Shown: positions 22,759 through 54,833 of the stretch, one piece after another
Position numbering within the stretch: position 1 is the first letter of the stretch
Layout of the letters: each line of letters begins with the position of its first letter
Assembly (NCBI GenBank): GCA_030550395.1
Contig: JAUQPL010000004.1
Coordinates: forward strand, 125,839 to 189,838
Length of the DNA stretch: 64,000 bases
Direction: 5' to 3'
DNA from: Bacteroidota bacterium
GTDB taxonomy: Bacteria; Bacteroidota; Ignavibacteria; Kapaibacteriales; HRBIN21
The notes under the pieces: generated by a model
Told to the model about the DNA's origin: nothing
What the model saw: only the letters and a program-made list of their open reading frames with translations
Databases searched by the model: none
Translations under genes and position numbers: made by a program

Positions 22759-22760
22759 GG

Positions 22761-30552: not shown

Positions 30553-32193
30553 ATGGAGCAGGGCTTTCGAATAGCTGGACATGTGGTTCTGCTTGACCAG
30601 CGGCGGATTGAGCCGGCGGAGGTTGTGGTCCGGGACGGCAGGATTGCTGCCGTAGAAGCACGCCGAGCTTCGGAAGTACCATCGGTATACCTGCTACCGG
30701 GTTTTGTAGATGCCCACGTTCACGTGGAGAGTTCCTTGTTGCCACCTCCAGAGTTTGCCCGTCTGGCGGTTGTCCATGGGACGGTTGCAACCGTCTCCGA
30801 CCCCCATGAGATCGCAAATGTGCTTGGCGTTGAAGGGGTGCGTTATATGCTCCGGACCGGAGCGATGGTCCCGTTCATTTTCTGGTTTGGAGCTCCTTCG
30901 TGCGTACCGGCGACGCATTTTGAAACAGCTGGGGCGGAGTTGACGGCGGAGGATATCCGCACCTTGTTTGAGGAAGGGGTACCGTACTTGAGCGAGATGA
31001 TGAACTTCCCCGGGGTGCTGGAAGGGGACCCGGAGGTTATGGCGAAGCTGGAGCTGGCGCATTCCTATGGTCGTCCTGTGGACGGGCATGCTCCCGGATT
31101 GCGGGGGGAACAAGCGCGGAGATATGCTGCTGCAGGGATTTCCACAGACCATGAGTGTTTTACGCTGGAGGAAGCGCTGGACAAGGTGGAGGCGGGCATG
31201 TGGATTCTTATCCGCGAGGGCTCCGCAGCGCGCAATTTTGACGCCCTGCATCCCCTCCTGCGGCTCCATCCAGAACGCTGTATGTTTTGCACCGATGACC
31301 TGCATCCGGACCGGCTTGTGGAGGGGCATATCAACGGGTTAGTTCGACGTGCGATAGCTCTGGGTTACGATTTCTGGGATGTTCTCCGGGCAGCATGCCT
31401 CCATCCAGTACTCCACTACGGGTTACCGCTTGGGCGCCTACGTCCTGGTGACCCTGCTGACTTCATCGTGGTTGAAGATCTTGTGAACTTCCGGGTTCTG
31501 GCCACCTATATCCGTGGGGAGTGTGTTGCTCGGGAAGGCAACACGTTGATACCGCATTATCCGGTCGAGCGTGTGAATCGCTTTCGGAAGCGAATAGTGC
31601 GGGAGGAGGAGCTGCGGGTTCCGGCGCATGGGAAGACTCTGCGCCTTATAGAAGCCTATGATGGGCAGCTGGTCACCGGAGAGATTCACTGCTCTGCGCC
31701 GGTCCGGGATGGCGCTATCGTTGCTGATCCCGAGCAGGACATTCTCAAGCTGGTTGTGGTCAACCGCTATGCGGAGGCACCTCCGGCGGTAGCCTTTATT
31801 CGGGGCTTTGGGCTACGCCGTGGAGCGATTGCTTCCAGTGTCGCTCATGATTCGCACAATGTTATTGCCGTTGGAGGAAGTGATCGGGAATTGTGCTCTG
31901 CTCTCAACGCTGTCATGGAGGCGGAGGGAGGCTTGGCGGTTGCAGAAGGAGAACATGTTTCCGTGCTTCCCTTGAGCATTGCTGGGCTGATGAGCCCGGA
32001 GGATGGCTATACTGTGGCTCAGCGCTATACGGAACTCGATCGTGCCGCCAAGCAATGCGGTTCATCGCTGCAGGCACCCTTTATGACCCTTTCGTTTATG
32101 GCGTTGTTGGTCATTCCGGCGCTGAAGCTGAGTGATCGGGGGCTCTTCGACGGCAGGGCATTTCGATTTGTCCCGCTATGCGTGGAGTCGTAA
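30553..32193 (+). CDS. ade: Adenine deaminase
   Basis: Ade signature LLPGFVDAHVHVESS and ~550 aa two-domain architecture. Confidence 0.8.
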   Translation: MEQGFRIAGHVVLLDQRRIEPAEVVVRDGRIAAVEARRASEVPSVYLLPGFVDAHVHVESSLLPPPEFARLAVVHGTVATVSDPHEIANVLGVEGVRYMLRTGAMVPFIFWFGAPSCVPATHFETAGAELTAEDIRTLFEEGVPYLSEMMNFPGVLEGDPEVMAKLELAHSYGRPVDGHAPGLRGEQARRYAAAGISTDHECFTLEEALDKVEAGMWILIREGSAARNFDALHPLLRLHPERCMFCTDDLHPDRLVEGHINGLVRRAIALGYDFWDVLRAACLHPVLHYGLPLGRLRPGDPADFIVVEDLVNFRVLATYIRGECVAREGNTLIPHYPVERVNRFRKRIVREEELRVPAHGKTLRLIEAYDGQLVTGEIHCSAPVRDGAIVADPEQDILKLVVVNRYAEAPPAVAFIRGFGLRRGAIASSVAHDSHNVIAVGGSDRELCSALNAVMEAEGGLAVAEGEHVSVLPLSIAGLMSPEDGYTVAQRYTELDRAAKQCGSSLQAPFMTLSFMALLVIPALKLSDRGLFDGRAFRFVPLCVES

Positions 32194-32234
32194 AAAGTGC
32201 CAGGAGTTGCGGGATACTTGAGCGTGGGAGCAGC

Positions 32235-32242
32235 TAAGTTTG
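32235..32242 (+). promoter_or_regulatory. Candidate -7 element TAAGTTTG upstream of the fused E1 gene
   Basis: An exact TAnnTTTG 30 nt upstream of the ATG. Confidence 0.4.
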
Positions 32243-32271
32243 TAGTGCCATAGCTAGCAACGGAGGCATCG

Positions 32272-34371
32272 ATGCCCGGGCCGGTGTGGTCTCCTGTGGC
32301 AACTCGTCGGGAGCAGAAGTCTAGCGCAGAGCTATGGTGGGAAGTAGCGCGCTTACTGCTTGTGTCCCGTCGGATTGACGAGATAGAAGAGCAGCGGCTG
32401 CTGCCAGCGGGAAAGATTACGTATCAGTTTTCCGCCAAAGGACACGAGTTGGCACAGATTCTTCTGGGCTTGCACTTGGGGCATTCCCATGATGGGGCAG
32501 CGGTATATTACCGCTCGCGCCCGTTCATGCTGGCGGTCGGACTGACACCGGAGGAGGCTTTTGCTGGGCCTTTAGGGAGGGTGGGGAGTCCGAACAGTGG
32601 GAGGGACATTGGGGTAGTGTTCAATATGCCACCGCGGCGAGGCGTAACGGTGCTTCCTGCCAGCGGTGATGTCGGAGCGCAGTATACTCCGGCAGCCGGA
32701 TGGGCACAGGCGATTCTGTACCGACAGCGGGTATTGCAAGAGCGGGAATGGGAGGGAGCTGTCGCTGTGGCTCTGGGTGGGGATGGCTCCGTGGCTACCA
32801 ATGGCTTTTGGTCGGCATTGACAATGGCTACCACACTCCGGCTACCCATGCTGTTTTTCATTGAGAACAACGGTTATGGCATCTCCGTACCAGCGTCGCG
32901 GCAGGCGCCGGGTGGGCGGATTGCTCCCAATCTGCGCTCTTTCCGTGGTCTGCGCATCTGGGAGGTAGATGGGACCGATCCGAAGGCGATGCAGGAGGTG
33001 CTGATGGAGGTTTTACCGTTTGTCCGCTCTGCCGAGGGACCGGCATTGGTGGAGGTTTCTGTGCCTCGGTTGTGCGGGCATTCCAGTGCGGACACGCAGG
33101 CGTATAAGACGCCAGAGGAACGGGAACAAGAGCAGGCGCGCGATCCACTCCCTCGGCTTCGCCGATTCTTACTGCGGCATCGCCTCGTGGATGCCCAAAG
33201 TTGGCAACAACTGGAGCAGCAGGTTGAACAAGAAGTTCAGTCAGCACTTCAAGCAGCTCTCTCACAGCCAGAGCCCGATCCAGCAACAGCGCGTCGCTTT
33301 CTCTTCTCAGAACCTGGTACTCTCCAGCATGTCGGTGGACTTGCTCCTGAGGGGGTGCAGTTGCCAGAGGGCACGCCGATACCGCAGCCCAGCGGGCCAC
33401 GGATCAATATGGTGGATGCGATTCGGCGAACTCTGGAGCGGGAGATGGAGCTGAATCCTCGGCTGCTGATTTTCGGAGAAGATGTTGGGGTTAAAGGGGG
33501 AGTCCATGGAGCAACGTTGGACCTCCAGCAGAAGTTCGGCGCTGAGCGTGTCTTTGATACTTCGCTTTCTGAGGAGGGAATTATTGGGCGTGCCATTGGA
33601 ATGGCGTTGGCGGGACTGCTTCCGGTCCCGGAGATTCAGTTCCGCAAGTATGCCGATCCGGCAACCGAGCAGCTCAACGATTGTGGGACAATTCGCTGGC
33701 GCACAGCTGGGCGTTTTGCTGCCCCAATTGTTGTGCGTATTCCGGTCGGCTTCAGCAAAGTTACAGGTGACCCATGGCATAGCGTCTGTGGGGAAGCGGT
33801 CTTCGCTCATGCTCCCGGATGGCGGATTGCATTCCCCTCCAATGCAGAGGACGCTGTCGGTCTTTTGCGCGCGGCTCTGCGCGGCAACGATCCCACGATT
33901 TTCTTAGAGCATCGGGCTCTGTACGATACCCCACAGGCACGCCGCCCTTACCCGGGTGATGATTTTGTCCTCCCCTTTGGACAAGCAGCCTTAGTGCGGA
34001 AGGGCGCCTTGGTAACGGTAGTGACGTGGGGAGCGATGCTCTATCGCGTTATAGAGGCGATGGATCGCAGCGGGATTGAAGGTGATGTTATTGACCTGCG
34101 CACGCTGGTTCCCTGGGATAAGGAGGCGGTTTTAAACTCGGTGCGGAAGACGGGACGGTGTCTCATAGTGCACGAGGACACGTGGACGTGTGGGTTTGGA
34201 GCGGAAATTGCTGCTGTCGTTGCTCGGGAAGCTTTCCAATGGTTGGACGCTCCAATTGAGCGCGTTGCTGCGCTGGATTGCCCCGTTCCGTACAACCGGG
34301 GCTTGATGGATGCTGTGCTGCCTACAGTGGAGCGGATTGCGGTAGCATTGGAGCGCCTTCTACGCTTCTGA
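32272..34371 (+). CDS. 2-oxoacid (branched-chain alpha-keto acid) dehydrogenase E1 component, fused alpha/beta subunits
   Basis: The N-terminal half is TPP-binding E1-alpha-like; the C-terminal half is transketolase-like E1-beta. It is a single 699-aa polypeptide. Confidence 0.85.
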   Translation: MPGPVWSPVATRREQKSSAELWWEVARLLLVSRRIDEIEEQRLLPAGKITYQFSAKGHELAQILLGLHLGHSHDGAAVYYRSRPFMLAVGLTPEEAFAGPLGRVGSPNSGRDIGVVFNMPPRRGVTVLPASGDVGAQYTPAAGWAQAILYRQRVLQEREWEGAVAVALGGDGSVATNGFWSALTMATTLRLPMLFFIENNGYGISVPASRQAPGGRIAPNLRSFRGLRIWEVDGTDPKAMQEVLMEVLPFVRSAEGPALVEVSVPRLCGHSSADTQAYKTPEEREQEQARDPLPRLRRFLLRHRLVDAQSWQQLEQQVEQEVQSALQAALSQPEPDPATARRFLFSEPGTLQHVGGLAPEGVQLPEGTPIPQPSGPRINMVDAIRRTLEREMELNPRLLIFGEDVGVKGGVHGATLDLQQKFGAERVFDTSLSEEGIIGRAIGMALAGLLPVPEIQFRKYADPATEQLNDCGTIRWRTAGRFAAPIVVRIPVGFSKVTGDPWHSVCGEAVFAHAPGWRIAFPSNAEDAVGLLRAALRGNDPTIFLEHRALYDTPQARRPYPGDDFVLPFGQAALVRKGALVTVVTWGAMLYRVIEAMDRSGIEGDVIDLRTLVPWDKEAVLNSVRKTGRCLIVHEDTWTCGFGAEIAAVVAREAFQWLDAPIERVAALDCPVPYNRGLMDAVLPTVERIAVALERLLRF

Positions 34372-35673
34372 GGACAGGGCCTCTGTCAGGTAAGGGCTCA
34401 AGAGGGCAACTATGCGCTCAGTTCCTCCCAGGTGCTCCTGGATGACGGAGCAAGCGGCAGCACCACGGCGTCGGCGTTCTGCAGGGTGAAGTGCCATGTT
34501 GGAGAGCCAATGAGCCAGCTCGTCAGCTGTGTGGACGATCGTAAGTGCTCCGGCAGCTATGAGTTTGGGGGCGTCTGGGGAGCCGTCGATGGCCGGTCCG
34601 CAGGATAGGGGTAACCCATAGGCAGCCGGTTCGGCAAGGTTGTGCACACAGCGCCCGAAGCCTCCACCCACGTACGCTACCGTTCCGTATCCATAGAGCG
34701 AAAGCAGCAGCCCCAACCGGTCAATGATGAGGACGGGGAACTCTCCGTTTGCGGGAACGTCGGCCGTCATAGAGCTCCAGCAGAGAGCATGGGGGAAGAG
34801 GGAAAGAAGGCTTTGGATAGTGTTAGCGGTGGGCTCATGAGGGACAAGAATGAGGGTGGAGCGGGACTTTATCTCCTCGGGGAGTTGCTGAAGGGCGCGG
34901 AAGAGGAGTTGATGGTCCGCATCCCAGGTGCTCCCAGCGATGATATGGAAGCGTTCAGCAGAAAGGAAAACTTCCGGAAGGGGGAGGGACGGACGACACT
35001 GAGCGGCTTCCCAGATGCGGTCGTAGCGGGGATCGGGGACGACTGGGAAAGAGACTTTCGGCAGCAACTGCCGGAATTGCTCTGCATCGTCAGGTGTCAA
35101 AGGGACGATGGCATGGAATTGGCTGAGTATGCGGCACAGTATCGACCGGGCCCCTGGCAGCCTCCAGAGCCGATTTCGGGGAAAGGTAGCAGCAATGAGC
35201 AGTGTCGGTATCCTCTCTTGTCGGAGACGCCAGAGATAGTTGGGCCAGAGTTCATAGCGGATGAAGACAGCTACGTGAGGCCGCACAAGAGTGATAAACC
35301 GGCGGGCGTTTGCAGGGGTATCCGGCGGAAGAAGGATAACGGCATCTGCCAGTGGTGTCCGCTGATGGGCGGCGAAACCAGAGGGGGAGAAGAAAGACAC
35401 AACGACGAAGAGCTGGGGAAACGTTTCCCGGAGTTGGGCAATGACGGAGCGAACATGTTCAAATTCACCGGCGGAAGCAACGTGAACCCACAAGCGGGGA
35501 ACCCCCAGCGCAGAGGTAAGGAGCTCCGGAAGTTGGTGGAGATGCTCCCGCCATTGCTGGCGGAGCTGAAGCTTCCGACGGAGGGAGGGCACTGCTGCAG
35601 CAACGGTAGAGGCAATTTTCAAAGCGATACTGGAAAGCCACAGAAGAAGAGGCATCGGACGGTATGTGACCAC
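34360..35673 (-). CDS. waaA: 3-deoxy-D-manno-octulosonic acid (Kdo) transferase
   Basis: KdtA N-terminal region (WVHVASAGEFEHV..) and a glycosyltransferase GT30 C-terminal domain. Confidence 0.8.
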   Translation of the reverse strand: MVTYRPMPLLLWLSSIALKIASTVAAAVPSLRRKLQLRQQWREHLHQLPELLTSALGVPRLWVHVASAGEFEHVRSVIAQLRETFPQLFVVVSFFSPSGFAAHQRTPLADAVILLPPDTPANARRFITLVRPHVAVFIRYELWPNYLWRLRQERIPTLLIAATFPRNRLWRLPGARSILCRILSQFHAIVPLTPDDAEQFRQLLPKVSFPVVPDPRYDRIWEAAQCRPSLPLPEVFLSAERFHIIAGSTWDADHQLLFRALQQLPEEIKSRSTLILVPHEPTANTIQSLLSLFPHALCWSSMTADVPANGEFPVLIIDRLGLLLSLYGYGTVAYVGGGFGRCVHNLAEPAAYGLPLSCGPAIDGSPDAPKLIAAGALTIVHTADELAHWLSNMALHPAERRRRGAAACSVIQEHLGGTERIVALLSPYLTEALSSEA

Positions 35674-35708
35674 CGCGTGCTGGGGAGTGATTTCAAAATT
35701 ACCGTAAA

Positions 35709-36260
35709 TTGCCCTTCCAGCGGGAGCCAGAGATGGTGCCGGACCAGGTGGTGACGAGCGTCTTGGAGCGGAAGACCCGGCAGCGTCTCCGAGAGTATGG
35801 TGTGCTTGTGCTGATGCTGGGTTTTTTCGTCAGCGTGTTTACGCCGGTGGTAGAACTTGGCCTCGCACTCCCGATTGGCCTCTTAGCATTGGCCATGGGG
35901 ATGAGCTTGGCATGGTTGCGGGAATATCGGCGATTGCTTGCGAATTCATACTATCGCTTGGCGGTAGAGGCGTCGGAAAGCTTTCTGTTGCTAGTGTTGT
36001 TGGGAGGTTCGGCTTTTTTAGCCCATGGTCTGCGCCTATCGCTGGTTCTGTACCAAGCACATTTGAGCTATGCACTCTTTGGGTACTTAGTTGGCTCGTT
36101 AGCGGGGGAGGTAGGGTGGCGTCGTTTGGTGTTCGGACGGCTTTTAGCCGAGCAGCAGTATCGGTATGTGCAGAATCTCTCGCCCTCGGTTCTTCTTCCC
36201 TACTCGTGGCGTCATTTCCGGTTGCTGTGGCGTCGGTGGCGTGATGGTCGTGAGGGATGA
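35709..36260 (+). CDS. Hypothetical 4-TM membrane protein
   Basis: Hydrophobic segments; the start is possibly MVPDQ at 35733. Its stop overlaps the next ATG (ATGA). Confidence 0.45.
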   Translation: MPFQREPEMVPDQVVTSVLERKTRQRLREYGVLVLMLGFFVSVFTPVVELGLALPIGLLALAMGMSLAWLREYRRLLANSYYRLAVEASESFLLLVLLGGSAFLAHGLRLSLVLYQAHLSYALFGYLVGSLAGEVGWRRLVFGRLLAEQQYRYVQNLSPSVLLPYSWRHFRLLWRRWRDGREG

Positions 36261-37663
36261 GCCTTGTAGCGGCGGTGGTAGGCACACTGATTGGGACGGC
36301 AGTTCCGGGGGAACAGGTGCTGCCCTATTTTCCTGAGGCGGCGGCCGTCGTGGCTGTGGCTGCCCGGCGGGAGTATACAAAGGAACGCCGTAGGGCGGTA
36401 CATTTCCGGAAGGCTACCGTGCGAAAGCCGAGCGTGCGGAGGGGAAAGAGAATGTCCGCACGGGACCGATTACATCGTAGGATACGGCGCTTTGCTCCGC
36501 GATGGTACGAAGTTGCTGACACGACGTTGGCAATTGGAGTGCGGTACCAGCGGTATCGGGTCGTAGCGTCTCCCGAGCGGCGGGTCCACGTGATACGGGT
36601 CTGGCTGCGCCAACCAGGGGTCGAGGTAAAACTAATCCCCGCGCTCCCAGGGCAGCGAGAGACGCTTGCCGATATTGTCCGGCGGTATGATACATCCAGC
36701 CCTCTCTACGAAGTCGTGGCTGCCGTCAATGGGTATTTCTGGAGTCGTTGGGGGGCTTTCCCCGTAGGCATAGCGGCTACGGATGGAGAACTTCTGCAAG
36801 CTTCGCGCTACAAGCGCTGGAGCGCCTTCGCTGTGGACGGGAGGGGGAATGCGTTTGTGGATACGTTTCTGCTACAGCTTGCTGTGCGTTTGCCCGATGG
36901 CTGCCGGCTGCCACTCCACTCAGTAAATCGGCGGGATGATACGGTGAGCAATGTCCTATACACGCGGTTTGCTGGGGATACGATTCCACGGCCCCAAGCG
37001 GTGGTCATGACAGTTGTAGAGGGGGACAGTTTGGATAGCGTTGCCGTTGTAAATATCCCAGCTGATACGCTAGAGCCGTTGCATTGGAAGCTGCGCCTGC
37101 GGTATCTGCGGACGCCCTTTCTCGGAGGATCTTTGCCGTGTTTAGTCGTGGGAGTTGATTCAGGCTCAGTCCCGATGCCTTTACGGGGGTGTCTCCTTTC
37201 GCTTGGCCGTCCTTTCTCTCTGGCTGCTCTTCCGCAAGTGGGTGACACGGTATGGTTGGAGAGCACCTTTTCCCCGTCTGTGAAAAGCTCGGTCCAGCAT
37301 GTCTGGAGCGGGACTCCCCGGCTTGTTCGCAATGGACGGGTGCAGGTGGAAGCGGCGCGGGAAGGGACGACCTCGGCACGCTTCCTCTATCGGAGGCGGG
37401 CGCGGACGGCGGTCGGATTGACAAGGCGTGGAGAGCTCCTGCTCGTTGTCGTAGAGCATGGACATAGCTCTGGTGGGGCCACGATTGCGGAACTGGCTCA
37501 ATGGATGCGCCATCTGGGGGCGTATCAGGCGCTCAATTTGGATGGGGGTTCTTCCTCAGGGGTGTATATTCCAGGGGTCGGGACGTTGGGGAACACCTTC
37601 CCCGTTGCTTCGGCTTTAGCTGTGATTTGCCGCAAAATGCCGGCATCGGGAGGATTACGGTGA
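36257..37663 (+). CDS. Phosphodiester glycosidase (NAGPA-like) family protein
   Basis: C-terminal NLDGGSSS motif typical of the family; assignment from memory of the domain. Confidence 0.55.
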   Translation: MSLVAAVVGTLIGTAVPGEQVLPYFPEAAAVVAVAARREYTKERRRAVHFRKATVRKPSVRRGKRMSARDRLHRRIRRFAPRWYEVADTTLAIGVRYQRYRVVASPERRVHVIRVWLRQPGVEVKLIPALPGQRETLADIVRRYDTSSPLYEVVAAVNGYFWSRWGAFPVGIAATDGELLQASRYKRWSAFAVDGRGNAFVDTFLLQLAVRLPDGCRLPLHSVNRRDDTVSNVLYTRFAGDTIPRPQAVVMTVVEGDSLDSVAVVNIPADTLEPLHWKLRLRYLRTPFLGGSLPCLVVGVDSGSVPMPLRGCLLSLGRPFSLAALPQVGDTVWLESTFSPSVKSSVQHVWSGTPRLVRNGRVQVEAAREGTTSARFLYRRRARTAVGLTRRGELLLVVVEHGHSSGGATIAELAQWMRHLGAYQALNLDGGSSSGVYIPGVGTLGNTFPVASALAVICRKMPASGGLR

Positions 37664-38887
37664 GAGTTGGTCCCAAACTAAGCGGGAGCGATCGGAGAGC
37701 CAAGCGATGAGAGGCTTGCGTCCGATGTAAATCGCTGCCTCTATGGGCAGACCTTTGCGCAACGCAAGTCCTGCCGTGGAATGCCTAGCAAGGCGGTGAG
37801 TTCGGAGGGTGTCCCCTTCCAATGATGCTCGGACCCGGTAAGCGAGGGTGTGCCCGTTGGTTGTGAGGTCTTCGGCCACGCTTTCAACGCGTCCCCAGAG
37901 CGCTTCCCATTGTCCGGGCGGGAAGCCGGCGATAAGGTATCGTACCCGTTGACCAGGGCGTACCATTACGATGTCCTCTGGAGCGACGAACAGCTCTACC
38001 TCAAGCTGCATATCCGGGGTGATAGTGAGCACTTCCTGTCCGGCAGCGACATAAACCCCTGCTTGGGAAATGTAGAGCTGGCTGATCTGCCCACTGATAG
38101 GAGCGATAAGAGCAGTTTTGTGCAGCTGTTCATGCAGCAGTCCCACAAGCTGCCGCAATTCCCGCAGGCGGTTTTCTCCTGCCTCTATGCGTTGTGCAAG
38201 TTCTTGGCGGCGAGACTGTAAGTATTGCAGGGTGCGCAGTTCTTGGAGGCGAAGCTCTGTTGTGACCGCTTCGTACTCCTCAGCACTGGCGAATTGTTTT
38301 TCGTGGAGAGCCCCTGTACGTTCCCAGCCTTTGCGCAGTGATTCATAGTGGCGGGCGAAGAGTTGTAAGTCTTTGCGGATGGTTTCGGCCAGATTCCGCA
38401 CCTGGGGCGTGGAGAAAGAAAGGGGGGGGAACTGGGCCAGTAGCTGAGAAGGGGTTCCGCTAGTGGGCAAATGACGGAGCAGTTGGGAAAGCTCGGTAAG
38501 GAGTCGCTCTTCGTGGCGCAATTCCTCTTCGGTTCCTTGGAGGCGGAGTCGGATGTCAGTGTTGCGAAGTTGGAGGAGGGTATCTCCGCGCCGTACTTGC
38601 TGGTGGAGGTGAACGAGAACGGCTTCTACAATTCCTTCTGCGGGGCTACGGAGGGTCTGGGTTGGCAAGAGGGAGCGAATATAGCCACGGCAGCGCACAG
38701 TGACTTCTAATTCCGCAAAAAGGGTCCAAAGGGCAGCGGCGACTATAAAAGCGCCCATACCCCAGAAGAGCCATAGTCCTACGGCTGGGGGGCGTACCAA
38801 CTGGGTTTCCAGGCTCTCCGGTAATGTGTCCGCAGGGATAAGAGAATGCTCTAGCTCCTTCCATTGCTGACCCGCTCGGGGGTTCAT
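37655..38887 (-). CDS. HlyD-family membrane fusion protein (type I secretion / peptide exporter adaptor)
   Basis: An N-terminal TM, long coiled coil, C-terminal beta domain; overlaps the ABC gene by 4 nt. Confidence 0.8.
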   Translation of the reverse strand: MNPRAGQQWKELEHSLIPADTLPESLETQLVRPPAVGLWLFWGMGAFIVAAALWTLFAELEVTVRCRGYIRSLLPTQTLRSPAEGIVEAVLVHLHQQVRRGDTLLQLRNTDIRLRLQGTEEELRHEERLLTELSQLLRHLPTSGTPSQLLAQFPPLSFSTPQVRNLAETIRKDLQLFARHYESLRKGWERTGALHEKQFASAEEYEAVTTELRLQELRTLQYLQSRRQELAQRIEAGENRLRELRQLVGLLHEQLHKTALIAPISGQISQLYISQAGVYVAAGQEVLTITPDMQLEVELFVAPEDIVMVRPGQRVRYLIAGFPPGQWEALWGRVESVAEDLTTNGHTLAYRVRASLEGDTLRTHRLARHSTAGLALRKGLPIEAAIYIGRKPLIAWLSDRSRLVWDQLSP

Positions 38888-41157
38888 AGCGATCCCGTGG
38901 GTTCAGTAGTGGCACTAACAGTATAGCGCCGCCAAAGGCGAGCATAGAGCCCATTGCGGGCAAGGAGTTCCTCGTGCGTTCCTTCTTCCCGGATCCGTCC
39001 ATCTGCCAAGAGAGCAATTTTATCGGCGATGTGAACGGTGCTCAGCCGATGGGCAATCAGCAGGATAGTCATGCCTTCCTCCTGGCACAGCTCCTGCAGT
39101 AGACGCAGGATAAGGGCTTCGGCATCGGCATCCAAGTTGCTTGTGGCCTCGTCCAAAACAAGGATGCGAGGCTGGCGGTAGAGAGCTCGGGCAATTGCTA
39201 AGCGTTGGCGCTGCCCGCCGGAGAGACTCATCCCATGCTCTCCAAGCAGGGTCTCGTATCGCCCGGGAAGCTCTGCAATAGTCCGTTCTAACCCGACACG
39301 ACGGCAGACAGCGATGACGCGTTCGCGGTCGGGCTGCATATCTCCATAGGCAACGTTTTCTAAGACGGTCCCGTGAAAAAGCTCTACTTCCTGGGGGACG
39401 ATCCCAATGATGCGGCGGAGGGAGTCTGTGTCAATGTCCCGCACGTCGATGTTGTCCACCAAAACAGCGCCTTCTTGGGCGGTGTAGAGCTTGAGTAAGA
39501 GGCGAACCAGCGTTGTTTTCCCAGACCCCGATTCTCCAACAATGGCGGTAATGCTGCCAGCGGGGATGAAAAGGGAACATTGGCGCAGGACGGGGGGACG
39601 AGCGCCGTATCGGAATGTACAGTTGCGAAATTCAATCGCACCGCGAACCTGCGAGGGGAGTAGGATAATGCCACGCTGTTCCATGCGCTCTTCCGTCTCC
39701 AGCACCATGATTTCAAAGAGGCGGTCGGCAGCGATGAGAGCATCATGGACCATTTGTTGCAGAGCAAGGAATCGCCCCATTGGTTGAGCCAGTAATCCTA
39801 ACAGAAGCGAAAAGGTGATGAGTTCACCGACACTGAGTCGGGCCTGGAGGATCAGTAGGCTTCCCCACCAGAAGACACCCACCAGGGCCAGTCCACCAAT
39901 CAGCTCCCCGGAAATGGTTGCCGTAAGGTAATGGCGGAGCGAACGTCCCAGGAGGCGGAGAATTCCAACGAATGTCCGCTCGGCTTTCCATTGGCTATAG
40001 AGTTCGGCGGTTAAGGCTTTGACAGTCGCGATACCGGTGATGGTTGTAGTGAAATGGGCATTGAGGTCAGCACCCTGTTCCATCAGCGCTCGTTGGGTTT
40101 GCTGAATTGGACGGCGGAGAGCCAAGATGACACCGGCGTATAAGGGAATTGTGGCTGTGGATATCAATGCCAGTGGTGGGGAGTACAACCACATGAGGGC
40201 AAATGCTGCAGCGATTGTGGTGGTATCTACAAGGATGGTCAAGGCGGCTGTACTGATTGCATTGCGGACCTTGACGGCGTCGTAAACACGAGAGAGAATT
40301 TCCCCAGTGCGTCGGGCATCAAAGAAGGCTTGCGGAAGGCGGAGGAGGTGCCGGAAGTAGCCTAAAACGAGCCCTGCATCAATGCGTTGTACAACATGGA
40401 AGAGAAGGACTGAGCGCATCCACCCGAAAAAGGCACGGAGGAGGAGGAGCCCGATGAGAGCCACGGAGAGGGCGTGCAGGAGAGCAACGTTACCGGTAGG
40501 GAGCACTGTGTCAAAGAGCAGACCGGCATAGACAGCGGGTGCCATCCCAAGCAGCGTATAGAAGAGAGCGCCCAGGAATGCTTGGAAAAGCCAGGCTCGG
40601 TGCGGGCGGAGAAGACGCCAAAAGGTTTTCCATCGGGAGGGACTTAGCTCTGCTGCATGGAAATCCTCCCGGGGAGCTAAGATGACCACAATGCCTGTCC
40701 ACTGGGCTAGGAACTCCTCCATGGGCATCCGCACCAGTCCACGGGCAGGATCGCCCACGAGAAGCCGCTCGGACTCCACCTGGTAGAGCACGACGAAGTG
40801 GTAGCGATTGCGTTCTGCAATGTACATGTGAGCGATGGCAGGTAAGGGAACGTCCGCCAACATAGTCGGCAGGATGCGGACTCCCTTTGCGTAAAATCCC
40901 AACTGTTCTGCTGCCCGGACAATTCCTAAGACAGTCGTTCCCTCCCGGTCTGTCATCGTGTACTGGCGGAGGAGCGCTAACGGCAGTTGCAGTCCCCAAT
41001 AACTGGCAACGGATGCCAGAACGGCGGCTCCACAGTCTGTGGGATCGTGTTGGCGGACAACAACGGGACGCCGTCCCATCCTTGGCTGAGCTTTGGTTCG
41101 TGCAAAATTAGGGTTTCGTAGGGCAGCTTTGCTGGGCTCTGCAGCACTGTCTAACAT
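38884..41157 (-). CDS. Peptidase C39 domain-containing ABC transporter (double-glycine leader peptide processing/export ATPase-permease)
   Basis: An N-terminal C39 domain with catalytic Cys (HDPTDCGAAVLASVASYWG) and His (YHFVVLY), 6-TM permease, and a C-terminal ABC ATPase (GESGSGKTTL; LSGGQRQR; ILVLDEATS). The start may be MGRRP at 41079. Confidence 0.85.
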   Translation of the reverse strand: MLDSAAEPSKAALRNPNFARTKAQPRMGRRPVVVRQHDPTDCGAAVLASVASYWGLQLPLALLRQYTMTDREGTTVLGIVRAAEQLGFYAKGVRILPTMLADVPLPAIAHMYIAERNRYHFVVLYQVESERLLVGDPARGLVRMPMEEFLAQWTGIVVILAPREDFHAAELSPSRWKTFWRLLRPHRAWLFQAFLGALFYTLLGMAPAVYAGLLFDTVLPTGNVALLHALSVALIGLLLLRAFFGWMRSVLLFHVVQRIDAGLVLGYFRHLLRLPQAFFDARRTGEILSRVYDAVKVRNAISTAALTILVDTTTIAAAFALMWLYSPPLALISTATIPLYAGVILALRRPIQQTQRALMEQGADLNAHFTTTITGIATVKALTAELYSQWKAERTFVGILRLLGRSLRHYLTATISGELIGGLALVGVFWWGSLLILQARLSVGELITFSLLLGLLAQPMGRFLALQQMVHDALIAADRLFEIMVLETEERMEQRGIILLPSQVRGAIEFRNCTFRYGARPPVLRQCSLFIPAGSITAIVGESGSGKTTLVRLLLKLYTAQEGAVLVDNIDVRDIDTDSLRRIIGIVPQEVELFHGTVLENVAYGDMQPDRERVIAVCRRVGLERTIAELPGRYETLLGEHGMSLSGGQRQRLAIARALYRQPRILVLDEATSNLDADAEALILRLLQELCQEEGMTILLIAHRLSTVHIADKIALLADGRIREEGTHEELLARNGLYARLWRRYTVSATTEPTGSL

Positions 41158-41177
41158 CCCGAAAGGGGGCTTTTTTC

Positions 41178-41185
41178 TATTTTTG
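41178..41185 (+). promoter_or_regulatory. Candidate Bacteroidetes-type -7 promoter element TATTTTTG for the tRNA-Ala/tRNA-Gln pair
   Basis: An exact TAnnTTTG ending 14 nt before the tRNA 5' end, preceded by a T-run. Confidence 0.5.
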
Positions 41186-41199
41186 CAACGGCTATCTGT

Positions 41200-41272
41200 G
41201 GGCCGGTAGCTCAGTTGGGAGAGCGCCAGAATCGCACTCTGGAGGTCGGGAGTTCGAATCTCCTCCGGTCCA
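41200..41272 (+). tRNA. tRNA-Ala (anticodon CGC)
   Basis: Cloverleaf folded by hand: acceptor GGGCCGG/CCGGTCC with G3:U70, D-arm GCTCAGTTGGGAGAGC, anticodon loop AUCGCAC, T-loop TTCGAAT, A73; no CCA encoded. Confidence 0.85.
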
Positions 41273-41280
41273 CGTGAGCA

Positions 41281-41353
41281 TGCCCCGTGGTGTAACTGGC
41301 AACACGCCTGACTCTGGATCAGGAGAGTCCAGGTTCGAGTCCTGGCGGGGCAG
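41281..41353 (+). tRNA. tRNA-Gln (anticodon CUG)
   Basis: Cloverleaf folded by hand: acceptor TGCCCCG/CGGGGCA (U1:A72 typical of bacterial tRNA-Gln), anticodon stem CCTGA/TCAGG, loop CUCUGGA, T-loop TTCGAGT; no CCA encoded. Confidence 0.8.
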
Positions 41354-41365
41354 CGACGAATCTCT

Positions 41366-42034
41366 ATGCTGATGGATGCACAGCCATTACCCCTGTCGGC
41401 GACGGTTTTTCACTCTTTAAGTCGTCTAGCGTGGTGGACGGCGTTCTTCACCGTTGTCTATAACTTCTGTGAAGGGGTTTTTGCCCTATGGGCGGGGCAT
41501 ATTGGGAGCAGCTGGGGAGTGATCAGTTTTGGAATAGATGCCGTAGCAGAGTCACTCTCGGGAGGGGTAATCCTGTGGCGTTTTGCCCCCGGTATACGGG
41601 CAGACGAGCGCGAGCGCTTTGCCCAGAGAGAGCGGAGGGCGGTGGTTCTTATTGGACTGAGCTTCCTTGTCCTGAGTATGGTGGTTTTCGTTGAAGCCAT
41701 CCAACGCTTGCTGGGACATGTCCATGCTGAGGAGCACGGGCTGGCATTCATCGTAGCAGGGGTATCGCTCGTTGTGAAACCGCTCCTGTTCGGGATGAAA
41801 TGGTATCTGGGACAGCGCCTCCAGAGCGAGGCTCTACGTGCAGATGCCAAGCAGACATTGGCCTGTGCTGGCCTCTCTGCAGCGCTATTGCTTGGATTGG
41901 GAATGAATCAATGGTTTGGGGTATGGCAGGCAGATTCTGTGTTAGCTCTCCTCATCGCAGCAGTTTTGGTGCGGGAGGGGTTTCATGCTCTCCGCCATCG
42001 CCATATCCTGTGCTGTCCAATTTCCCAGCGATGA
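41366..42034 (+). CDS. Cation-efflux (CDF)-like membrane protein, transmembrane domain only
   Basis: Six predicted TM helices with Asp/His-containing TM motifs resembling CDF; it lacks the usual C-terminal cytoplasmic domain (222 aa). Confidence 0.45.
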   Translation: MLMDAQPLPLSATVFHSLSRLAWWTAFFTVVYNFCEGVFALWAGHIGSSWGVISFGIDAVAESLSGGVILWRFAPGIRADERERFAQRERRAVVLIGLSFLVLSMVVFVEAIQRLLGHVHAEEHGLAFIVAGVSLVVKPLLFGMKWYLGQRLQSEALRADAKQTLACAGLSAALLLGLGMNQWFGVWQADSVLALLIAAVLVREGFHALRHRHILCCPISQR

Positions 42035-42041
42035 GGAAGCC

Positions 42042-43775
42042 ATGAAGAAAGGAGGATTTCTCTCTGTTCTGCTCTTACTTGCCCTCGGATGCGCACGGGA
42101 ACGCTCCACGGAGGAACTCCGCCCAGCAGCCGGCGGACGCTTTTATGGCGGGACTTACCGCGTCAACGAAGTTGGAGAAGTTCGCTCTTTGGACCCCGTC
42201 CAAATCAATGACGTCACTTCCGCTCACGTTGCAGAGCAGATTTACGACAAGCTTCTTACCCTTGACGAGCGGTTACAGCTTCAGCCGGAGTTGGCAGAGC
42301 GCTGGGAAGTTTCGCCCGATGGGCTGGTTTACCGATATATCTTACGGCGGGGGGTCTATTTCCACGATAATCCTTGCTTCCCCGGTGGCAGGGGACGGGA
42401 GCTTACGGCGGAGGATGTCAAGTACTCGCTCACCCGCGCGTGCGATTTCCGGACGGGTACGCTGGGATATGACTACTTCCGTGGCAAGGTCAAGGGGGCC
42501 GATATCTACTTTGAAGCTACCCGTCGGGCGGCTCAGTCGGGCAAATCCCCTGAAGTAACCGAAGTGTCGGGTTTTGTGGTCCGCGATCGCTATACGTTTG
42601 AAATTCACCTGACCCGTCCTTTCGCTCCGTTTGAGTATTATGTCTCGCTTGTCACCTTCGCCGTCGTCCCACGAGAAGCGGTGGAGTATTACGGGGCCGA
42701 CTTTTTCCGTAATCCAGTCGGCTCTGGTCCCTTTATCCTCGTCTCGTGGACACCTGATCGGGAGCTACGCTTACGGCGTAACCCGCGGTATTGGCAGCGC
42801 GATGAGTATGGGAATCCACTCCCATATCTGGAGGCGATTTCGTTCCGCTTCATCAAGGACGAGAAGACACAGCTTTTGGAGTTTCGCCAAGGGAATCTGG
42901 AGGAGTGCTATCGGATCCCGGCAGAGTTTTTTCCGCAAGTGGTGGATGAACACAAGCAGCTGCGGGGAGAGTGGCGCCGTTTCCAGCTGCTCCGAGTTCC
43001 GGCAGTGGCAACGCAGTATTATGGAATGCTGACCCAACATCCGGTCTTTCGTGACCGGAGGGTTCGGCAAGCATTTGCCTATGCTATAGATCGGGAGCGT
43101 ATTGTTCGCTATGTGCTCCGAGGGCAAGCGGGAGAACCTGGGCATTATGGGCTTGTGCCACCATCGCTACCGGGATATCCTGCACGGAGCATACGGGGAT
43201 ACCGGTTTGATCCTGAGCGAGCACGGCGCTTATTAGCCGAGGCCGGGTATCCAGACGGGCGGGGATTCCCACGGATTACACTGCAACTCAACGCCGGTGG
43301 TGGACGCAACGTGCAGGTTGCCGAAGCTGTGCAGGCAATGCTGCGGGAGCATTTGGGCATAGAGGTAGAACTGCGCCAAGTAGAGTTTGCGCAGCATTTG
43401 CGGGAAATTGATGCAGGGCGTGTGCCCTTCTTCCGCTTGGGTTGGGTGGCTGATTACCCGGAGCCGGAAAACTTCCTCAACCTCTTCTACGGGAAGTTCG
43501 TGCCGGATAGGGAAGGCGATATCAGCCCAATCAACTCGACGCGCTACCGCAATCCTGCCTTTGATGCAGTGTTTGAGCAAGCACTGGTCACAACGGATCG
43601 GCAACGCCGGATGGAGCTCTATCGACAGGCAGAGCAGATTGCTATGGATGACGCGCCCATGATCATCCTTTTCTACGACGAAGATTACCGCCTACTGCAG
43701 CCTTATGTTGCCGGCTATCGGAACAATGCCATGGATCGGCGCTGGTACAAATACGTCTGGCTGCGCTCCCGCTGA
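42042..43775 (+). CDS. ABC transporter substrate-binding protein, family 5 (peptide/nickel/opine type) lipoprotein
   Basis: SBP_bac_5 architecture; the start was refined to MKKGGFLSVLLLLALGC (lipobox). Confidence 0.75.
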   Translation: MKKGGFLSVLLLLALGCARERSTEELRPAAGGRFYGGTYRVNEVGEVRSLDPVQINDVTSAHVAEQIYDKLLTLDERLQLQPELAERWEVSPDGLVYRYILRRGVYFHDNPCFPGGRGRELTAEDVKYSLTRACDFRTGTLGYDYFRGKVKGADIYFEATRRAAQSGKSPEVTEVSGFVVRDRYTFEIHLTRPFAPFEYYVSLVTFAVVPREAVEYYGADFFRNPVGSGPFILVSWTPDRELRLRRNPRYWQRDEYGNPLPYLEAISFRFIKDEKTQLLEFRQGNLEECYRIPAEFFPQVVDEHKQLRGEWRRFQLLRVPAVATQYYGMLTQHPVFRDRRVRQAFAYAIDRERIVRYVLRGQAGEPGHYGLVPPSLPGYPARSIRGYRFDPERARRLLAEAGYPDGRGFPRITLQLNAGGGRNVQVAEAVQAMLREHLGIEVELRQVEFAQHLREIDAGRVPFFRLGWVADYPEPENFLNLFYGKFVPDREGDISPINSTRYRNPAFDAVFEQALVTTDRQRRMELYRQAEQIAMDDAPMIILFYDEDYRLLQPYVAGYRNNAMDRRWYKYVWLRSR

Positions 43776-43843
43776 GGATAGTAGGCAGCGTATGTTTGGG
43801 AAATTTTGTTTTTTGCAATCCCGGCTGTGTGCATTGGCGGCGG

Positions 43844-45532
43844 GGGATGCAGCGTTCTTTGAAAATCGGGATATTGGTGGTTGTGGTGTCGCTGTTGCTT
43901 GGGTGCCGCTCCAGGGAAGGGATTCCGTCAGACAGCAGCTTTGTTTACAACGAGGCAGAGGGAATCACTACATTAGACCCTGCCCACATGAGCTACATGG
44001 GCGCAATCTGGGTGGGGGCACAATTGTACAATGGCTTGGTTGAGTTTGATTCGGCTTTGCGTGTGGTACCGTGTCTTGCCCGCTCGTGGAGTGTAGATTC
44101 TACAGGCCGTCGCTGGCGGTTCGTTGTGCGTACGGATGTTTTTTTCCACGAGGATCGGTGCTTTGGTGGGGTATTGCGGCGGCTGCGTGCAGCGGATGTG
44201 AAATTCTCCTTTGAACGTATCTGCGATGCGCGAACGCGCTCGCCCGGTTTATGGGTCTTCTGGGGTAAGCTGGAAGGGGTAGAGGAGTTCCATGCTGCCA
44301 CTGCTCAGGGCAAGAAGCCTCCGGGCGGGCTTCGAGGTCTGTGGGTCGTTGATGACAGTACGCTGGAAATCCATCTCCAGCGGCCATTTGCTCCGTTCCT
44401 GGAGCTTTTGACGGTGCCTTACTGCTGGATTGTTCCTGAAGAGGCGGTGCGTTTCTACGGGGAGGAATTCTTCCGCCATCCTGTCGGAACGGGACCTTTC
44501 CGCCTCCAGGAGTGGCAACCAGATGTCCGCTTGGTGTTGCGGCGGAATGAACGTTACTTCAAGCGCGACCGTCACGGAGTGCAGCTGCCGTATTTGGAAT
44601 CCGTTGTTGTGCGTTTCCTGCGTGATCCCAAGATAGCCTTCTGGGAGTTCCAGCAGGGGAGGCTGGATATGATCTCGGGGCTCGATCCCAGTATAGTCCC
44701 CACAGTTTTGACGGCGGAAGGGAAGTTGCGGCACGAGTTCGCTCGCTATCAGCTCCTAACGGCTCCTGCGTATGCGGTGGAATACTATGGCATCATGCTG
44801 GATACAACGACCGAAGGGGGGAGGACATCGCCGCTGGCGCGTTCTCGGCTATTGCGACAAGCTCTCAATTATGCCATTGACCGGGAGCGGATTATCCGCA
44901 ATGTGCTGCATGGGTTAGCAGAGCCAGCTCACCACGGAATATTGCCCCCTGGATTCCCGGGATTCTCGCCGCAAGTTGTGGGGTACCGCTACGATCCTCA
45001 GAAGGCACAACAGCTCCTTGCTGCTGCGGGCTTTCCTAAAGGGAAGGGGTTGCCGCCACTTGTTCTGCAATTAGGAGCGAACCCACGCACGCTCTCGGTC
45101 GCGGAAGCTGTTCAACAGCAGCTTGCCGAGTTTGGCATCCGGGTAGAGCTTCGGCAGGTCAATTTCCCGCAACACCTGGCTATGGTTCGCCAAGGACAAT
45201 GTATGCTCTGGCGCACGAACTGGATTGCCGACTATCCAGATCCGGAGAACTTCCTGGCCTTGTTCTACTCGCCCTACAGGGCGCCATGGGGTCCGAATAC
45301 GACCCGTTTCCATAGCCCTGTGCTTGATTCTCTCTACGAGCGTGCATTGACCGAAAGAGTTACGGAACGCCGCTTTGAGCTCTACCGCTCCATGGAGCAT
45401 TCCGTTATCGGGGAGGCACCGTGGGTGTTTTTGTACTATCCGCGCCTTGTCCGCCTGCTCCAGCCGACGGTGACGGGGATGTGGCTGGATGGCAGTGACC
45501 GTCTCGTGCTGGAGACCGTTCGTAAGAGGTGA
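43844..45532 (+). CDS. ABC transporter substrate-binding protein, family 5 lipoprotein (paralog)
   Basis: SBP_bac_5 architecture parallel to the upstream paralog; the start was refined to MQRSLKIGILVVVVSLLLGC. Confidence 0.75.
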   Translation, partial: GMQRSLKIGILVVVVSLLLGCRSREGIPSDSSFVYNEAEGITTLDPAHMSYMGAIWVGAQLYNGLVEFDSALRVVPCLARSWSVDSTGRRWRFVVRTDVFFHEDRCFGGVLRRLRAADVKFSFERICDARTRSPGLWVFWGKLEGVEEFHAATAQGKKPPGGLRGLWVVDDSTLEIHLQRPFAPFLELLTVPYCWIVPEEAVRFYGEEFFRHPVGTGPFRLQEWQPDVRLVLRRNERYFKRDRHGVQLPYLESVVVRFLRDPKIAFWEFQQGRLDMISGLDPSIVPTVLTAEGKLRHEFARYQLLTAPAYAVEYYGIMLDTTTEGGRTSPLARSRLLRQALNYAIDRERIIRNVLHGLAEPAHHGILPPGFPGFSPQVVGYRYDPQKAQQLLAAAGFPKGKGLPPLVLQLGANPRTLSVAEAVQQQLAEFGIRVELRQVNFPQHLAMVRQGQCMLWRTNWIADYPDPENFLALFYSPYRAPWGPNTTRFHSPVLDSLYERALTERVTERRFELYRSMEHSVIGEAPWVFLYYPRLVRLLQPTVTGMWLDGSDRLVLETVRKR

Positions 45533-45559
45533 GGTTCCACAATCAGGGAGGGTGAAGCC

Positions 45560-46414
45560 ATGAAAGTACTCATCCACGTCCTCTGCGCTGCTGTTGCCTT
45601 TGTGGCTGTGGATATGTGGAAAGCACCTGCTGCCTTCGCTGTGCAGCAGTTGAAGAAAGCAGGGCAGTGGGTAAGCAAAGCAAAAAAGAAAAAGGGGAGG
45701 GCTTACCACCGTGCTATCCGTCGTGAGCAGCTCCGCCAAGAAGCATTGGAAATGGTCCGTTTGCATTCCTCTGCGCTGTGGGATATGGTGAACGGAGGAA
45801 GCCGTCCATTGCATCCAGATACCGTTGTTGCCTCGTCCTCCGAAGTGGTGTTGGAGGGAGAAGATCCTGAGGAGCTCCTCCGGGAGGATGATGTCCCTGT
45901 CGACATAGAGACCTTCCGCCAGTTATGGCTTGCTTACATGGAGGGGACGTCTGAGGATGAACGTACGCCGGCGGGCTTGAATAAGCGGCGGTTGATGGAT
46001 TTCATCCTTCAATGGCTCGGGGTTCCCTACCGGTTTGGGGGAACGACGGCGGAGGGGATAGACTGCTCGGGCTTTATCCGGCGCTTGTTCGCTGAGGTGG
46101 CTGCAGTGGTGTTGCCCCGAACAGCGGCATCACAGTATATGCTCGGCATGCCAGTGTCACGGCAAGAGTTACAGTTTGGCGACTTGGTGTTCTTCCATAC
46201 GCGGCGGCATGCCTATGTGTCGCACGTGGGTATTTACTTGGGGGACGATCTCTTTGCGCACGCTAGCTCCCGCGGAGGGGTTACCATTTCCTCGCTCCGG
46301 AGTACGTACTACAGCAAGCGCTTCATCGGGGCGCGGCGTCTGACGGAACGGACGCTCCTCCAATTAGCGGCAGCCCAGAGGATAGTACCCGAGGAGGTGG
46401 AGATAGGGAATTGA
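45560..46414 (+). CDS. NlpC/P60 (C40) family peptidase
   Basis: C40 catalytic motif GIDCSGFIRRLF with downstream His (HVGIYLG). Confidence 0.8.
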   Translation: MKVLIHVLCAAVAFVAVDMWKAPAAFAVQQLKKAGQWVSKAKKKKGRAYHRAIRREQLRQEALEMVRLHSSALWDMVNGGSRPLHPDTVVASSSEVVLEGEDPEELLREDDVPVDIETFRQLWLAYMEGTSEDERTPAGLNKRRLMDFILQWLGVPYRFGGTTAEGIDCSGFIRRLFAEVAAVVLPRTAASQYMLGMPVSRQELQFGDLVFFHTRRHAYVSHVGIYLGDDLFAHASSRGGVTISSLRSTYYSKRFIGARRLTERTLLQLAAAQRIVPEEVEIGN

Positions 46415-46780
46415 ATGCCGTTGCATCTGCTACCGTAGGGAAGCGGCCAGCCTTTTTACGATGGCAGTCTGTGTTCTCGGTGCCGGCCGGTAGCCCAACC
46501 GTCGGCAACCATCCCTTCTTGGCACATCCAGTAGCGGTCGTGTAGTGCCGCAGGAAGGCACGAGGAGTTTAGACTTCGGGTCTGGCTACCGATGGGATAT
46601 CGACTGCAAGGGGGTCAGAGGGTTCTACTTCTGTGACTCCATGTTCTTGCCTCAGAAGGGCAGGGTAGAGAGGCTCAAGAGGGGGTGGTATGCACGATGA
46701 GCCCCCAAAGCGGTAGAGATTCCGCCGGGGGACAGAGGCATACGGTGTGAGTGCCGGCGTGGGGAGCTAGCTTTCGTGCA

Positions 46781-46948: not shown

Positions 46949-47089
46949 TGCAGTGTGCTTTGCTGGAAGACGAGCTTGGGAACAGACGCAAAATTAGAAA
47001 GCCTGCTCCTTGACTGCGGATTGAGAAGGGGCTTGGTTCGGCAGAGTGTTTCCCTAATTTCGCCCTGTGTCGAATACAGCGGGCGAGAC

Positions 47090-54803: not shown

Positions 54804-54833
54804 AGGACAGTCCTCCTGTAGGTGGGCTTGGCT

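Follow-up and report, generated by a model that had tools for sequence, protein, structure and literature searches.

A 64,000-nucleotide stretch of the genome of a Bacteroidota bacterium of the order Kapaibacteriales (GenBank assembly GCA_030550395.1, contig JAUQPL010000004.1, positions 125,839 to 189,838 of the forward strand; hereafter the window) encodes a peptidase-containing ATP-binding cassette transporter (PCAT) together with a HlyD-family membrane fusion protein. Our analysis of the window and of related genomes suggests, with a probability of roughly 0.7, that the two proteins are the inner-membrane part of a bacteriocin/microcin (PCAT) type of type I secretion system (T1SS), that they are inherited vertically as a core pair in a group of Kapabacteria (Chlorobiota), and that their cargo is encoded elsewhere. 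The locus is ordinary, and the mechanism that we envisage for it does not depart from known PCAT/T1SS systems; other exporters of the type are already known to lack a neighbouring cargo gene. What is new here is the orphan state of the exporter throughout the lineage, the strong constraint acting on it, and an invariant promoter-type box upstream of its gene.

The exporter carries a complete C39 peptidase and ATPase

The PCAT combines a C39 peptidase domain, a transmembrane domain (PF00664, ABC_membrane) and an ATPase on one polypeptide (Table 1). Pfam searches were made with the longest open reading frame (ORF), which spans 38884-41157(-) on the ORF map and matched Peptidase_C39 (E 4.8e-33), ABC_membrane (8e-44) and ABC_tran (5e-33). 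This ORF overshoots the start of the gene. The orthologues are 722 to 730 aa long and upstream nucleotide conservation sets in exactly at the ATG at 41079, and we therefore placed the PCAT start at Met27 of the long ORF (41079) and not at 41157. The longest ORFs of DnaB (53325-55217(-); 630 aa, against 492 aa in the called gene) and of a zinc alcohol dehydrogenase (zinc ADH; 46895-48091(+)) likewise overshoot. Because mechanically derived ORFs extend beyond real starts, longest-ORF coordinates are unfit as gene starts here.

An earlier note on this DNA, made from the letters of the sequence, had described the C39 domain as intact on account of its catalytic Cys and His. A search of solved structures aligned the protein over its full length with PCAT1 (PDB 4RY2, 8VP9; E ~1e-164), with the full set of catalytic residues in place. 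Gln10, Cys16, His94 and Asp110, numbered from the corrected start, align with their counterparts in PCAT1 and are invariant in an alignment of 10 homologues. The aligned motifs of the window's PCAT and PCAT1 are HDPTDCGAAV and YDLTDCGAAC, YHFVVLY and AHFVVIY, and GDPARG and ADPGKG, respectively. All motifs of the ATPase are also intact, namely Walker A (GESGSGKT, starting at 39537), the signature (LSGGQ, 39225), Walker B (ILVLDE, 39165) and the H-loop His (39049-39051).

The start of the HlyD gene overlaps the PCAT stop by 4 nt (ATGA), as the earlier note had reported, and the adaptor is translationally coupled to the exporter. The adaptor matched Pfam HlyD_3 with an E value of 7e-20 and has a single N-terminal hydrophobic anchor at about residues 35-53. 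Its best relatives among solved structures are the T1SS adaptors E. coli HlyD (8DCK/7SGR) and LipC (5NEN). The pair provides two-thirds of a T1SS, the ABC transporter and the membrane fusion protein.

The presence of a C39 domain, an exporter transmembrane domain and an ATPase places the transporter, by its structure, among bacteriocin-type PCAT/AMS exporters. It does not behave as a HlyB-type RTX transporter, since Cys16 is present and invariant and the score against TIGR01846 was 471 against a cut-off of 725. Neither does the locus resemble an NHLP/Nif11 cluster (TIGR03794/03796/03797): there is no second ABC gene, and the scores were 461 against a cut-off of 853 for TIGR03796 and 57 against 156 for TIGR03794. 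The PCAT also fell clearly below the LssB subfamily model.

The PCAT's closest relatives are encoded in metagenome bins that bear the names bacterium HR21, Chlorobiota bacterium, Candidatus Kapaibacterium and Candidatus Kapabacteria. Assemblies with the orthologue are GCA_002898295.1 (bacterium HR21), CALKEU01 (a Kapabacteria metagenome-assembled genome), GCA_039630485.1 and the bin to which ENA contig ERZ27245615:k141_26902 belongs. Three syntenic relatives carry PCATs that are 85% (loci L001/L002/L011), 81% (L003/L004, bacterium HR21) and 77% (L007) identical to that of the window, and the PCAT of a further locus, L005, is 69% identical. When a genome collection was scanned with the PCAT protein, one true orthologue was recovered, in a Candidatus Kapabacteria metagenome-assembled genome; the 16 other loci were weak matches with 22-36% identity.

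No double-glycine cargo gene accompanies the exporter

We searched for a cargo gene in about 84 kb of this genome (the window and 10 kb beyond each end) and in about 20 kb around each orthologue. A strict regular expression for double-glycine (GG) leaders, applied from every start codon in six frames, returned no relevant match; its only match lay inside a ComF-like phosphoribosyltransferase ORF and was rejected as cargo. All ORFs of at least 25 aa in 22 intergenic gaps were read by hand, and no precursor was found among them. The ORFs in these gaps include a ferredoxin, QueF and a CMD-family protein. A leader hidden Markov model (HMM), built from canonical leaders and six leaders found in this analysis, was applied to ORFs of at least 20 aa, taking the first 90 residues from each start codon in six frames. 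In the window and four ortholog loci (147 kb) it found nothing above background, with a best score of 4.2 bits versus 4.7 bits in a reversed-sequence null, while genuine GG peptides, which belong to its training set, scored 8-16 bits. Judged by eye, the genuine peptides conform to the published consensus for double-glycine leaders, Leu(-12)...Glu(-8)-Leu(-7)...Gly-Gly (PMC6363468).

The claim that neither flank encodes a plausible precursor thus withstood the regular expression, the reading of intergenic ORFs and the leader HMM. It holds for ORFs down to 20 aa across the window and for the 10 kb past each window end, where no GG-leader ORF was present just outside the flanks that the earlier note had inspected. 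It holds for the relatives as well: comparison of the locus in search of a lost precursor gene showed the exporter to be an orphan at every orthologous locus examined. Two further sets of candidates were considered and rejected as cargo, a basic 55-aa ORF at 46781-46948(-), which has no GG motif and no family match, and the short ORFs that precede the PCAT in L005, which are not leader-like.

No RiPP (ribosomally made, post-translationally modified peptide) enzymes (LanM/LanB/LanC), immunity-like CPBP protein or LytTR regulator were found in the window and its 10-kb extensions, and no LanM/LanB/LanC or other RiPP enzymes at the ortholog loci. The locus is therefore not of the LanT type, a LanB dehydratase being present at the distant locus L009 only. 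Outside the look-up flanks and 16 Pfam-scanned genes, most window genes were assigned by inspecting translations alone. Because no plausible double-glycine precursor lies on the flanks, any cargo would have to be encoded in trans or bear an unrecognisable leader. The lack of a cis GG leader on either side backs the earlier proposal that the substrate is encoded in trans or is unannotated.

Could the cargo nevertheless be encoded in cis, with an atypical leader or as something other than a small peptide? The candidates would be the 183-aa membrane protein, the NAGPA-like protein or an unrecognised ORF, and some observations speak for them: PCAT, HlyD, NAGPA-like protein and membrane protein are linked even in L005, the 183-aa protein has no family assignment, and a study of the PCAT HetC raises an atypical cleavage signal (PMC10986499). 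However, both neighbours lie on the opposite strand in an overlapping operon of their own, in which the stop of the 183-aa gene overlaps the NAGPA-like start (ATGA). The N-termini of the neighbours lack an L..EL..x.GG-like motif, the leader HMM found none above the null, and linkage at such distance may be mere inheritance. We consider a cargo of this kind unlikely.

The exporter is constrained like a core gene

All PCAT protein clusters of at least 69% identity (8/8) are full length. The ratio of nonsynonymous to synonymous substitution rates (dN/dS) of the PCAT, which can be estimated only roughly here, was 0.05-0.11 in four comparisons. In three of these four, dN was lower in the C39 domain than in the other two domains; its dN/dS was comparable to that of the other two domains and not consistently the lowest. 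Synonymous sites are saturated between these genomes (dS ~2 or more), and their KdtA proteins are 46-64% identical. At 85/81/77%, the identity of the PCAT equals that of the adenine deaminase, E1 dehydrogenase and zinc ADH encoded nearby and exceeds that of KdtA (64/51/50%), the NAGPA-like protein, the CDF transporter and HlyD itself. Together, these comparisons point to strong purifying selection on the exporter pair, and the PCAT belongs to the core genes and is no stray bacteriocin locus.

Outside the ortholog group, PCAT identity falls from at least 69% to 47% in the next homologues, four loci of which were fetched. Three of them, L006, L008 and L009, lie on contigs of Kapaibacterium/Bacteroidota-like metagenomes, encode PCATs with 44-47% identity in the same PCAT-HlyD pairing, and have GG-leader peptides in cis. 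In L006 (Candidatus Kapaibacterium), a peptide with the leader MEKFNNLPVVELNSVELSSFVGG, followed by DNTAT..., is encoded ~1.8 kb upstream of the PCAT with an M61-like peptidase gene between them; its match to the TIGR04149 leader is weak and sub-threshold. L008 encodes two GG/GA-leader peptides between the ABC and HlyD genes, and L009 encodes three GG peptides together with a LanB dehydratase, a histidine kinase/LytTR pair and, as putative immunity proteins, three CPBP/Rce1-like proteins. The fourth locus, L010, has a CPBP protein and no evident peptide on its short contig. Because the nearest homologues carry GG peptides, the family around the PCAT performs the known PCAT task. The window's locus is like L006, L008 and L009 in its PCAT-HlyD pairing and unlike these bacteriocin-type loci in its surroundings: one to three GG peptides are present there (in L009 also the CPBP/Rce1-like, LytTR and LanB genes) and none in the window's clade. 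The clade has kept the machine, and the cargo genes are no longer adjacent.

Such homologues make it plausible that an ancestral cis arrangement was later lost, and no cargo was found here; the pair might accordingly be read as a relic, a former bacteriocin locus minus its peptide and immunity genes whose exporter is idle or scavenges foreign or paralogous peptides. But an idle gene would not be expected to show so low a dN/dS together with low amino-acid divergence of its peptidase domain, nor to be conserved like central-metabolism enzymes across synonymous-saturated genomes. Moreover, all orthologues are full length and their catalytic residues are invariant. We regard a relic as improbable.

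A further alternative is a non-peptide substrate, such as a lipid or lipopolysaccharide precursor, with the C39 domain in another role. In its favour, MsbA models give good scores for the exporter's transmembrane and ATPase parts (365 bits, though far under the cut-offs), and the Kdo transferase gene lies 2 kb away. Against this stand the invariant peptidase catalytic set with its low amino-acid divergence, a best full-length match to PCAT1 and not to MsbA, and an HlyD adaptor that fits trans-envelope export. In addition, a 2025 survey reports no PCAT function besides the export of GG-signal proteins (PMC12219008). A substrate of this class is very unlikely.

The pair is vertically inherited beside tRNA genes

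Three diverged genomes share the order CDF, tRNA-Gln, tRNA-Ala, then PCAT and HlyD, then NAGPA-like protein, 175-aa membrane protein, KdtA, E1 dehydrogenase and adenine deaminase. The tRNA-Ala/tRNA-Gln pair occupies the same place in L001, L004 and L007, and all neighbourhood genes checked (16/16) were syntenic. L005 retains the order from PCAT through HlyD, NAGPA-like protein, membrane protein and KdtA to E1; its upstream side differs, with cytochrome oxidase genes and without tRNAs. The membrane protein and NAGPA-like gene pair adjoins PCAT-HlyD at all orthologous loci, L005 included.

The coordinates of both flanks agree with the earlier description, with the tRNA pair upstream and the convergent NAGPA-like gene overlapping the HlyD 3' end, in this case by 9 nt. 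The two tRNAs were the only Rfam matches. Across the pair, GC content was 0.557-0.575, level with the flanks and close to the window mean of 0.569. There was no integrase in the window's ORF map or in the lists for orthologous loci, as the earlier note had stated for this locus, and no att-like repeats or direct repeats of the tRNA 3' end were found. Integration at tRNA genes targets their 3' end. PCAT and HlyD are located 5' of the tRNA genes, which is the wrong side for such an event.

The same note had taken the tRNA-adjacent position as typical of an acquired island, and here it was not borne out: the order is kept in the 85/81/77% relatives, GC is flat and repeats are lacking. None of the marks of a tRNA-linked island (integrase, direct repeat, deviant composition, variable presence) was found. 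Horizontal acquisition, which the two adjacent tRNA genes and the general knowledge that PCAT loci are often mobile in other bacteria might suggest, is scarcely credible for a pair that keeps its place from CDF to KdtA in three diverged genomes and stays with the KdtA side in a fourth whose tRNA side differs.

A promoter-type box is invariant upstream of the exporter

The PCAT and the tRNA pair are divergently oriented, and the intergenic region that holds the PCAT box is 120 bp long. In the alignment, the box TAATTTTG is invariant upstream of the PCAT in 5/5 loci, including L005 with its different flank. The window contains five copies, at 35694-35701(-), 41103-41110(-), 46989-46996(-), 61488-61495(-) and 63488-63495(+), against 0.89 expected, a count that was not attained in any of 100 shuffles. 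All copies are placed 20-45 nt 5' of a gene start on the matching strand; the genes are those for KdtA, the PCAT, the 55-aa ORF and QueF and the gene after MurG. TAATTTTG fits the consensus TAnnTTTG, the -7 element of sigma-A promoters of the Bacteroidetes type; the RpoD motif of Chlorobaculum most resembles these promoters (bioRxiv 10.1101/172254). We therefore regard the copy upstream of the PCAT as a putative promoter. In contrast, a scan with the sigma-70 consensus found sites no more often than in shuffled sequence, and the intergenic region contained none.

A second box, TATTTTTG, sits inside the block GCAAAAATAG, which is conserved in four tRNA-carrying loci, and is likely the promoter of the divergent tRNA pair. 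The TAATTTTG box could serve to annotate transcription units in this genome. The 55-aa ORF, MNQRTVLLLNAYARLTGQSLRQVRRWWYSLNWHERTRQRERIAREIARQEKGANR, is very basic, has its own TAATTTTG box, is 71-76% identical in L001/L007 and has no Pfam or NCBIfam match.

Comparison with known exporters and proposed mechanism

PCAT1 of Clostridium (Acetivibrio) thermocellum (4RY2, 6V9Z, 7T54-57) shares its three-domain architecture with the window's PCAT, alignable over residues 29-744 of the long ORF, and the Cys/His/Asp residues and all ATPase motifs are in place here. PCAT1 belongs to a monoderm host and has no HlyD partner, whereas the window's PCAT has an adaptor and no adjacent cargo; the PCAT1 cargo, CtA, is encoded beside PCAT1. 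The colicin V exporter of E. coli, CvaB/CvaA/TolC, likewise consists of a diderm PCAT with a membrane fusion protein and an unlinked outer-membrane channel. The genes for microcin V and its immunity protein adjoin cvaAB on a plasmid, whereas the pair in the window is chromosomal and core and has no neighbouring peptide or immunity genes. The outer-membrane channel of the CvaB/CvaA system is encoded elsewhere (PMC12219008).

Two other systems bear on the location of the cargo gene. HetC of Nostoc PCC 7120 is a PCAT with its active-site residues whose physiological substrate is not known and in whose vicinity no GG-leader gene lies (PMC10986499). Like the window's PCAT, it is chromosomal and has the catalytic Cys and His; unlike it, HetC has no membrane fusion protein gene nearby, is tied to heterocyst differentiation and belongs to another phylum, and we claim no orthology. 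In Streptococcus pneumoniae, ComAB and BlpAB process GG peptides encoded at other loci (PMC6016807, PMC7018657) and share one substrate pool (PMC6016807). These PCATs resemble the present one in that their GG substrates are encoded elsewhere and differ in their monoderm host, in having the accessory proteins ComB/BlpB instead of a T1SS adaptor, and in being regulated by quorum sensing. The precedents of ComAB/BlpAB and HetC make a cargo in trans plausible.

In the mechanism that we propose, the pair would be transcribed from its own housekeeping-type promoter. The C39 domain would bind a cytoplasmic precursor, encoded at another locus, that carries a GG-type leader, and would cut it after Gly-Gly. 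The ABC core would then translocate the cargo, and the HlyD adaptor would bridge to an unlinked TolC-like outer-membrane channel through which the cargo would pass. Studies of PCAT1 reportedly describe the same leader-cleavage and export mechanism. For class II microcins, the leader is cut by a PCAT and export proceeds through an adaptor and a TolC-like channel (PMC12219008).

Several observations weigh against reading the pair as a PCAT-type T1SS module with cargo encoded elsewhere. The PCAT scored 502.5 bits against NCBIfam TIGR01193, just under the cut-off of 523.85, although this was still the best-scoring NCBIfam model, and the adaptor matched TIGR01843 with E 7e-36 and 124 bits, under the cut-off of 208.65. 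No TolC-like gene, which is usually unlinked, was found in the window (Pfam on unassigned ORFs) or in the gene-caller Pfam lists of the flanks and ortholog loci, and no cargo was found in the ~84 kb read here and the ~20 kb around each orthologue. Saturation of dS makes the dN/dS values rough, and the HMM scores of the genuine peptides are circular because the same peptides are in the training set.

A tentative extension, which we hold at well under even odds, is that the pair is a lineage-wide 'housekeeping' PCAT module that exports a conserved non-bacteriocin peptide or protein with a GG leader, encoded elsewhere, such as a signal or a component of the envelope or matrix. A similar role is suspected for HetC in cyanobacteria. 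A PCAT is usually taken to mark a bacteriocin or RiPP locus, and mining tools look for the cargo next door. Here the exporter is stable and constrained, and in no relative examined do genes for cargo, immunity or regulation lie near it, a pattern that suggests a conserved cellular role over strain-level warfare. The puzzle posed by HetC, namely what orphan PCATs of diderm bacteria export, thereby extends to a second, unrelated lineage, and a comparative prediction follows: the cargo would come from a family of GG-leader genes whose presence goes together with that of the orthologue across Kapabacteria.

Features of the locus and of the wider window

Table 1. Features of the exporter locus, its neighbours and the related peptide-bearing loci. 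Coordinates refer to the window unless a locus is named.
Feature	Coordinates	Strand	Basis or remark
PCAT gene	38884..41079	-	731 aa from corrected start; Pfam domains, PCAT1 match, orthologue lengths
C39 peptidase domain	40666..41061	-	Pfam PF03412 over residues 33-164 of the long ORF
C39 catalytic codons	Gln10 41050-41052; Cys16 41032-41034; His94 40798-40800; Asp110 40750-40752	-	
ATPase core of nucleotide-binding domain	38884..39537	-	Pfam ABC_tran PF00005 and motif positions
HlyD-family membrane fusion protein	37655..38887	-	410 aa; Pfam HlyD_3 and HlyD_D23
TAATTTTG, putative -7 promoter box, Bacteroidetes/Chlorobi sigma-A type	41103..41110	-	24 nt upstream of PCAT start
TATTTTTG box	41178..41185	+	15 nt upstream of tRNA-Ala; neighbouring feature outside the exporter
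tRNA-Ala(cgc)	41200-41273	+	ARAGORN and Rfam; divergent from PCAT
tRNA-Gln(ctg)	41281-41354	+	ARAGORN and Rfam; divergent from PCAT
NAGPA-like phosphodiester glycosidase gene	36257..37663	+	Pfam PF09992, E 2e-29; neighbour
183-aa membrane-protein gene	35709-36260	+	four helices predicted; no family assignment
GG-leader small gene, L006	8089-8223		unannotated/hypothetical
GG-leader small genes, L008	5455-5625, 5957-6130		unannotated/hypothetical
GG-leader small genes, L009	780-989, 1238-1384, 1445-1597		unannotated/hypothetical

Beyond the tRNA genes, the cation diffusion facilitator (CDF) homologue (41366-42034(+)) has 222 aa (214-223 aa in relatives) and is covered by essentially the membrane part of the Pfam and TIGR models only; it seems to lack the usual C-terminal cytoplasmic domain. 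It is followed by two tandem genes for lipoprotein-like SBP_bac_5 (peptide/nickel-binding) proteins at 41985-43775(+) and 43796-45532(+), which have neither ABC permease nor ATPase genes as neighbours. The former is the most conserved gene of the neighbourhood (86-88%), and in all close relatives the two lie between the CDF gene and an NlpC/P60 peptidase gene. On the other side, the alpha and beta parts of the 2-oxoacid dehydrogenase E1 are fused into one protein of 699 aa (32272-34371(+)), as in three relatives; in L005 (11312-13403) they are encoded by two genes (387 and 320 aa).

The remainder of the window holds housekeeping genes, many of them assigned by inspecting translations (DnaK, UvrC, UvrD, ribosomal protein S1, CysRS, GluRS, MurG and DnaB), along with the Kdo transferase (KdtA) gene and a capsule/exopolysaccharide cluster. 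This polysaccharide export and biosynthesis cluster (13131-24269) encodes a Wzc-like chain-length/tyrosine kinase protein, a weak Wzi-like protein and, judged by eye only, Gfo/Idh/MocA oxidoreductase-like and sugar transferase-like ORFs; it is interrupted by a multihaem cytochrome-like gene and the gene for ribosomal protein S1. A 454-aa protein without a Pfam match is encoded at 10071-11435(-), and a 116-aa lipoprotein-like ORF overlaps it (11432-11782(-)); both are called genes on the source contig. GC skew is positive throughout 30000-50000 (about +0.03 to +0.22), regardless of gene orientation.

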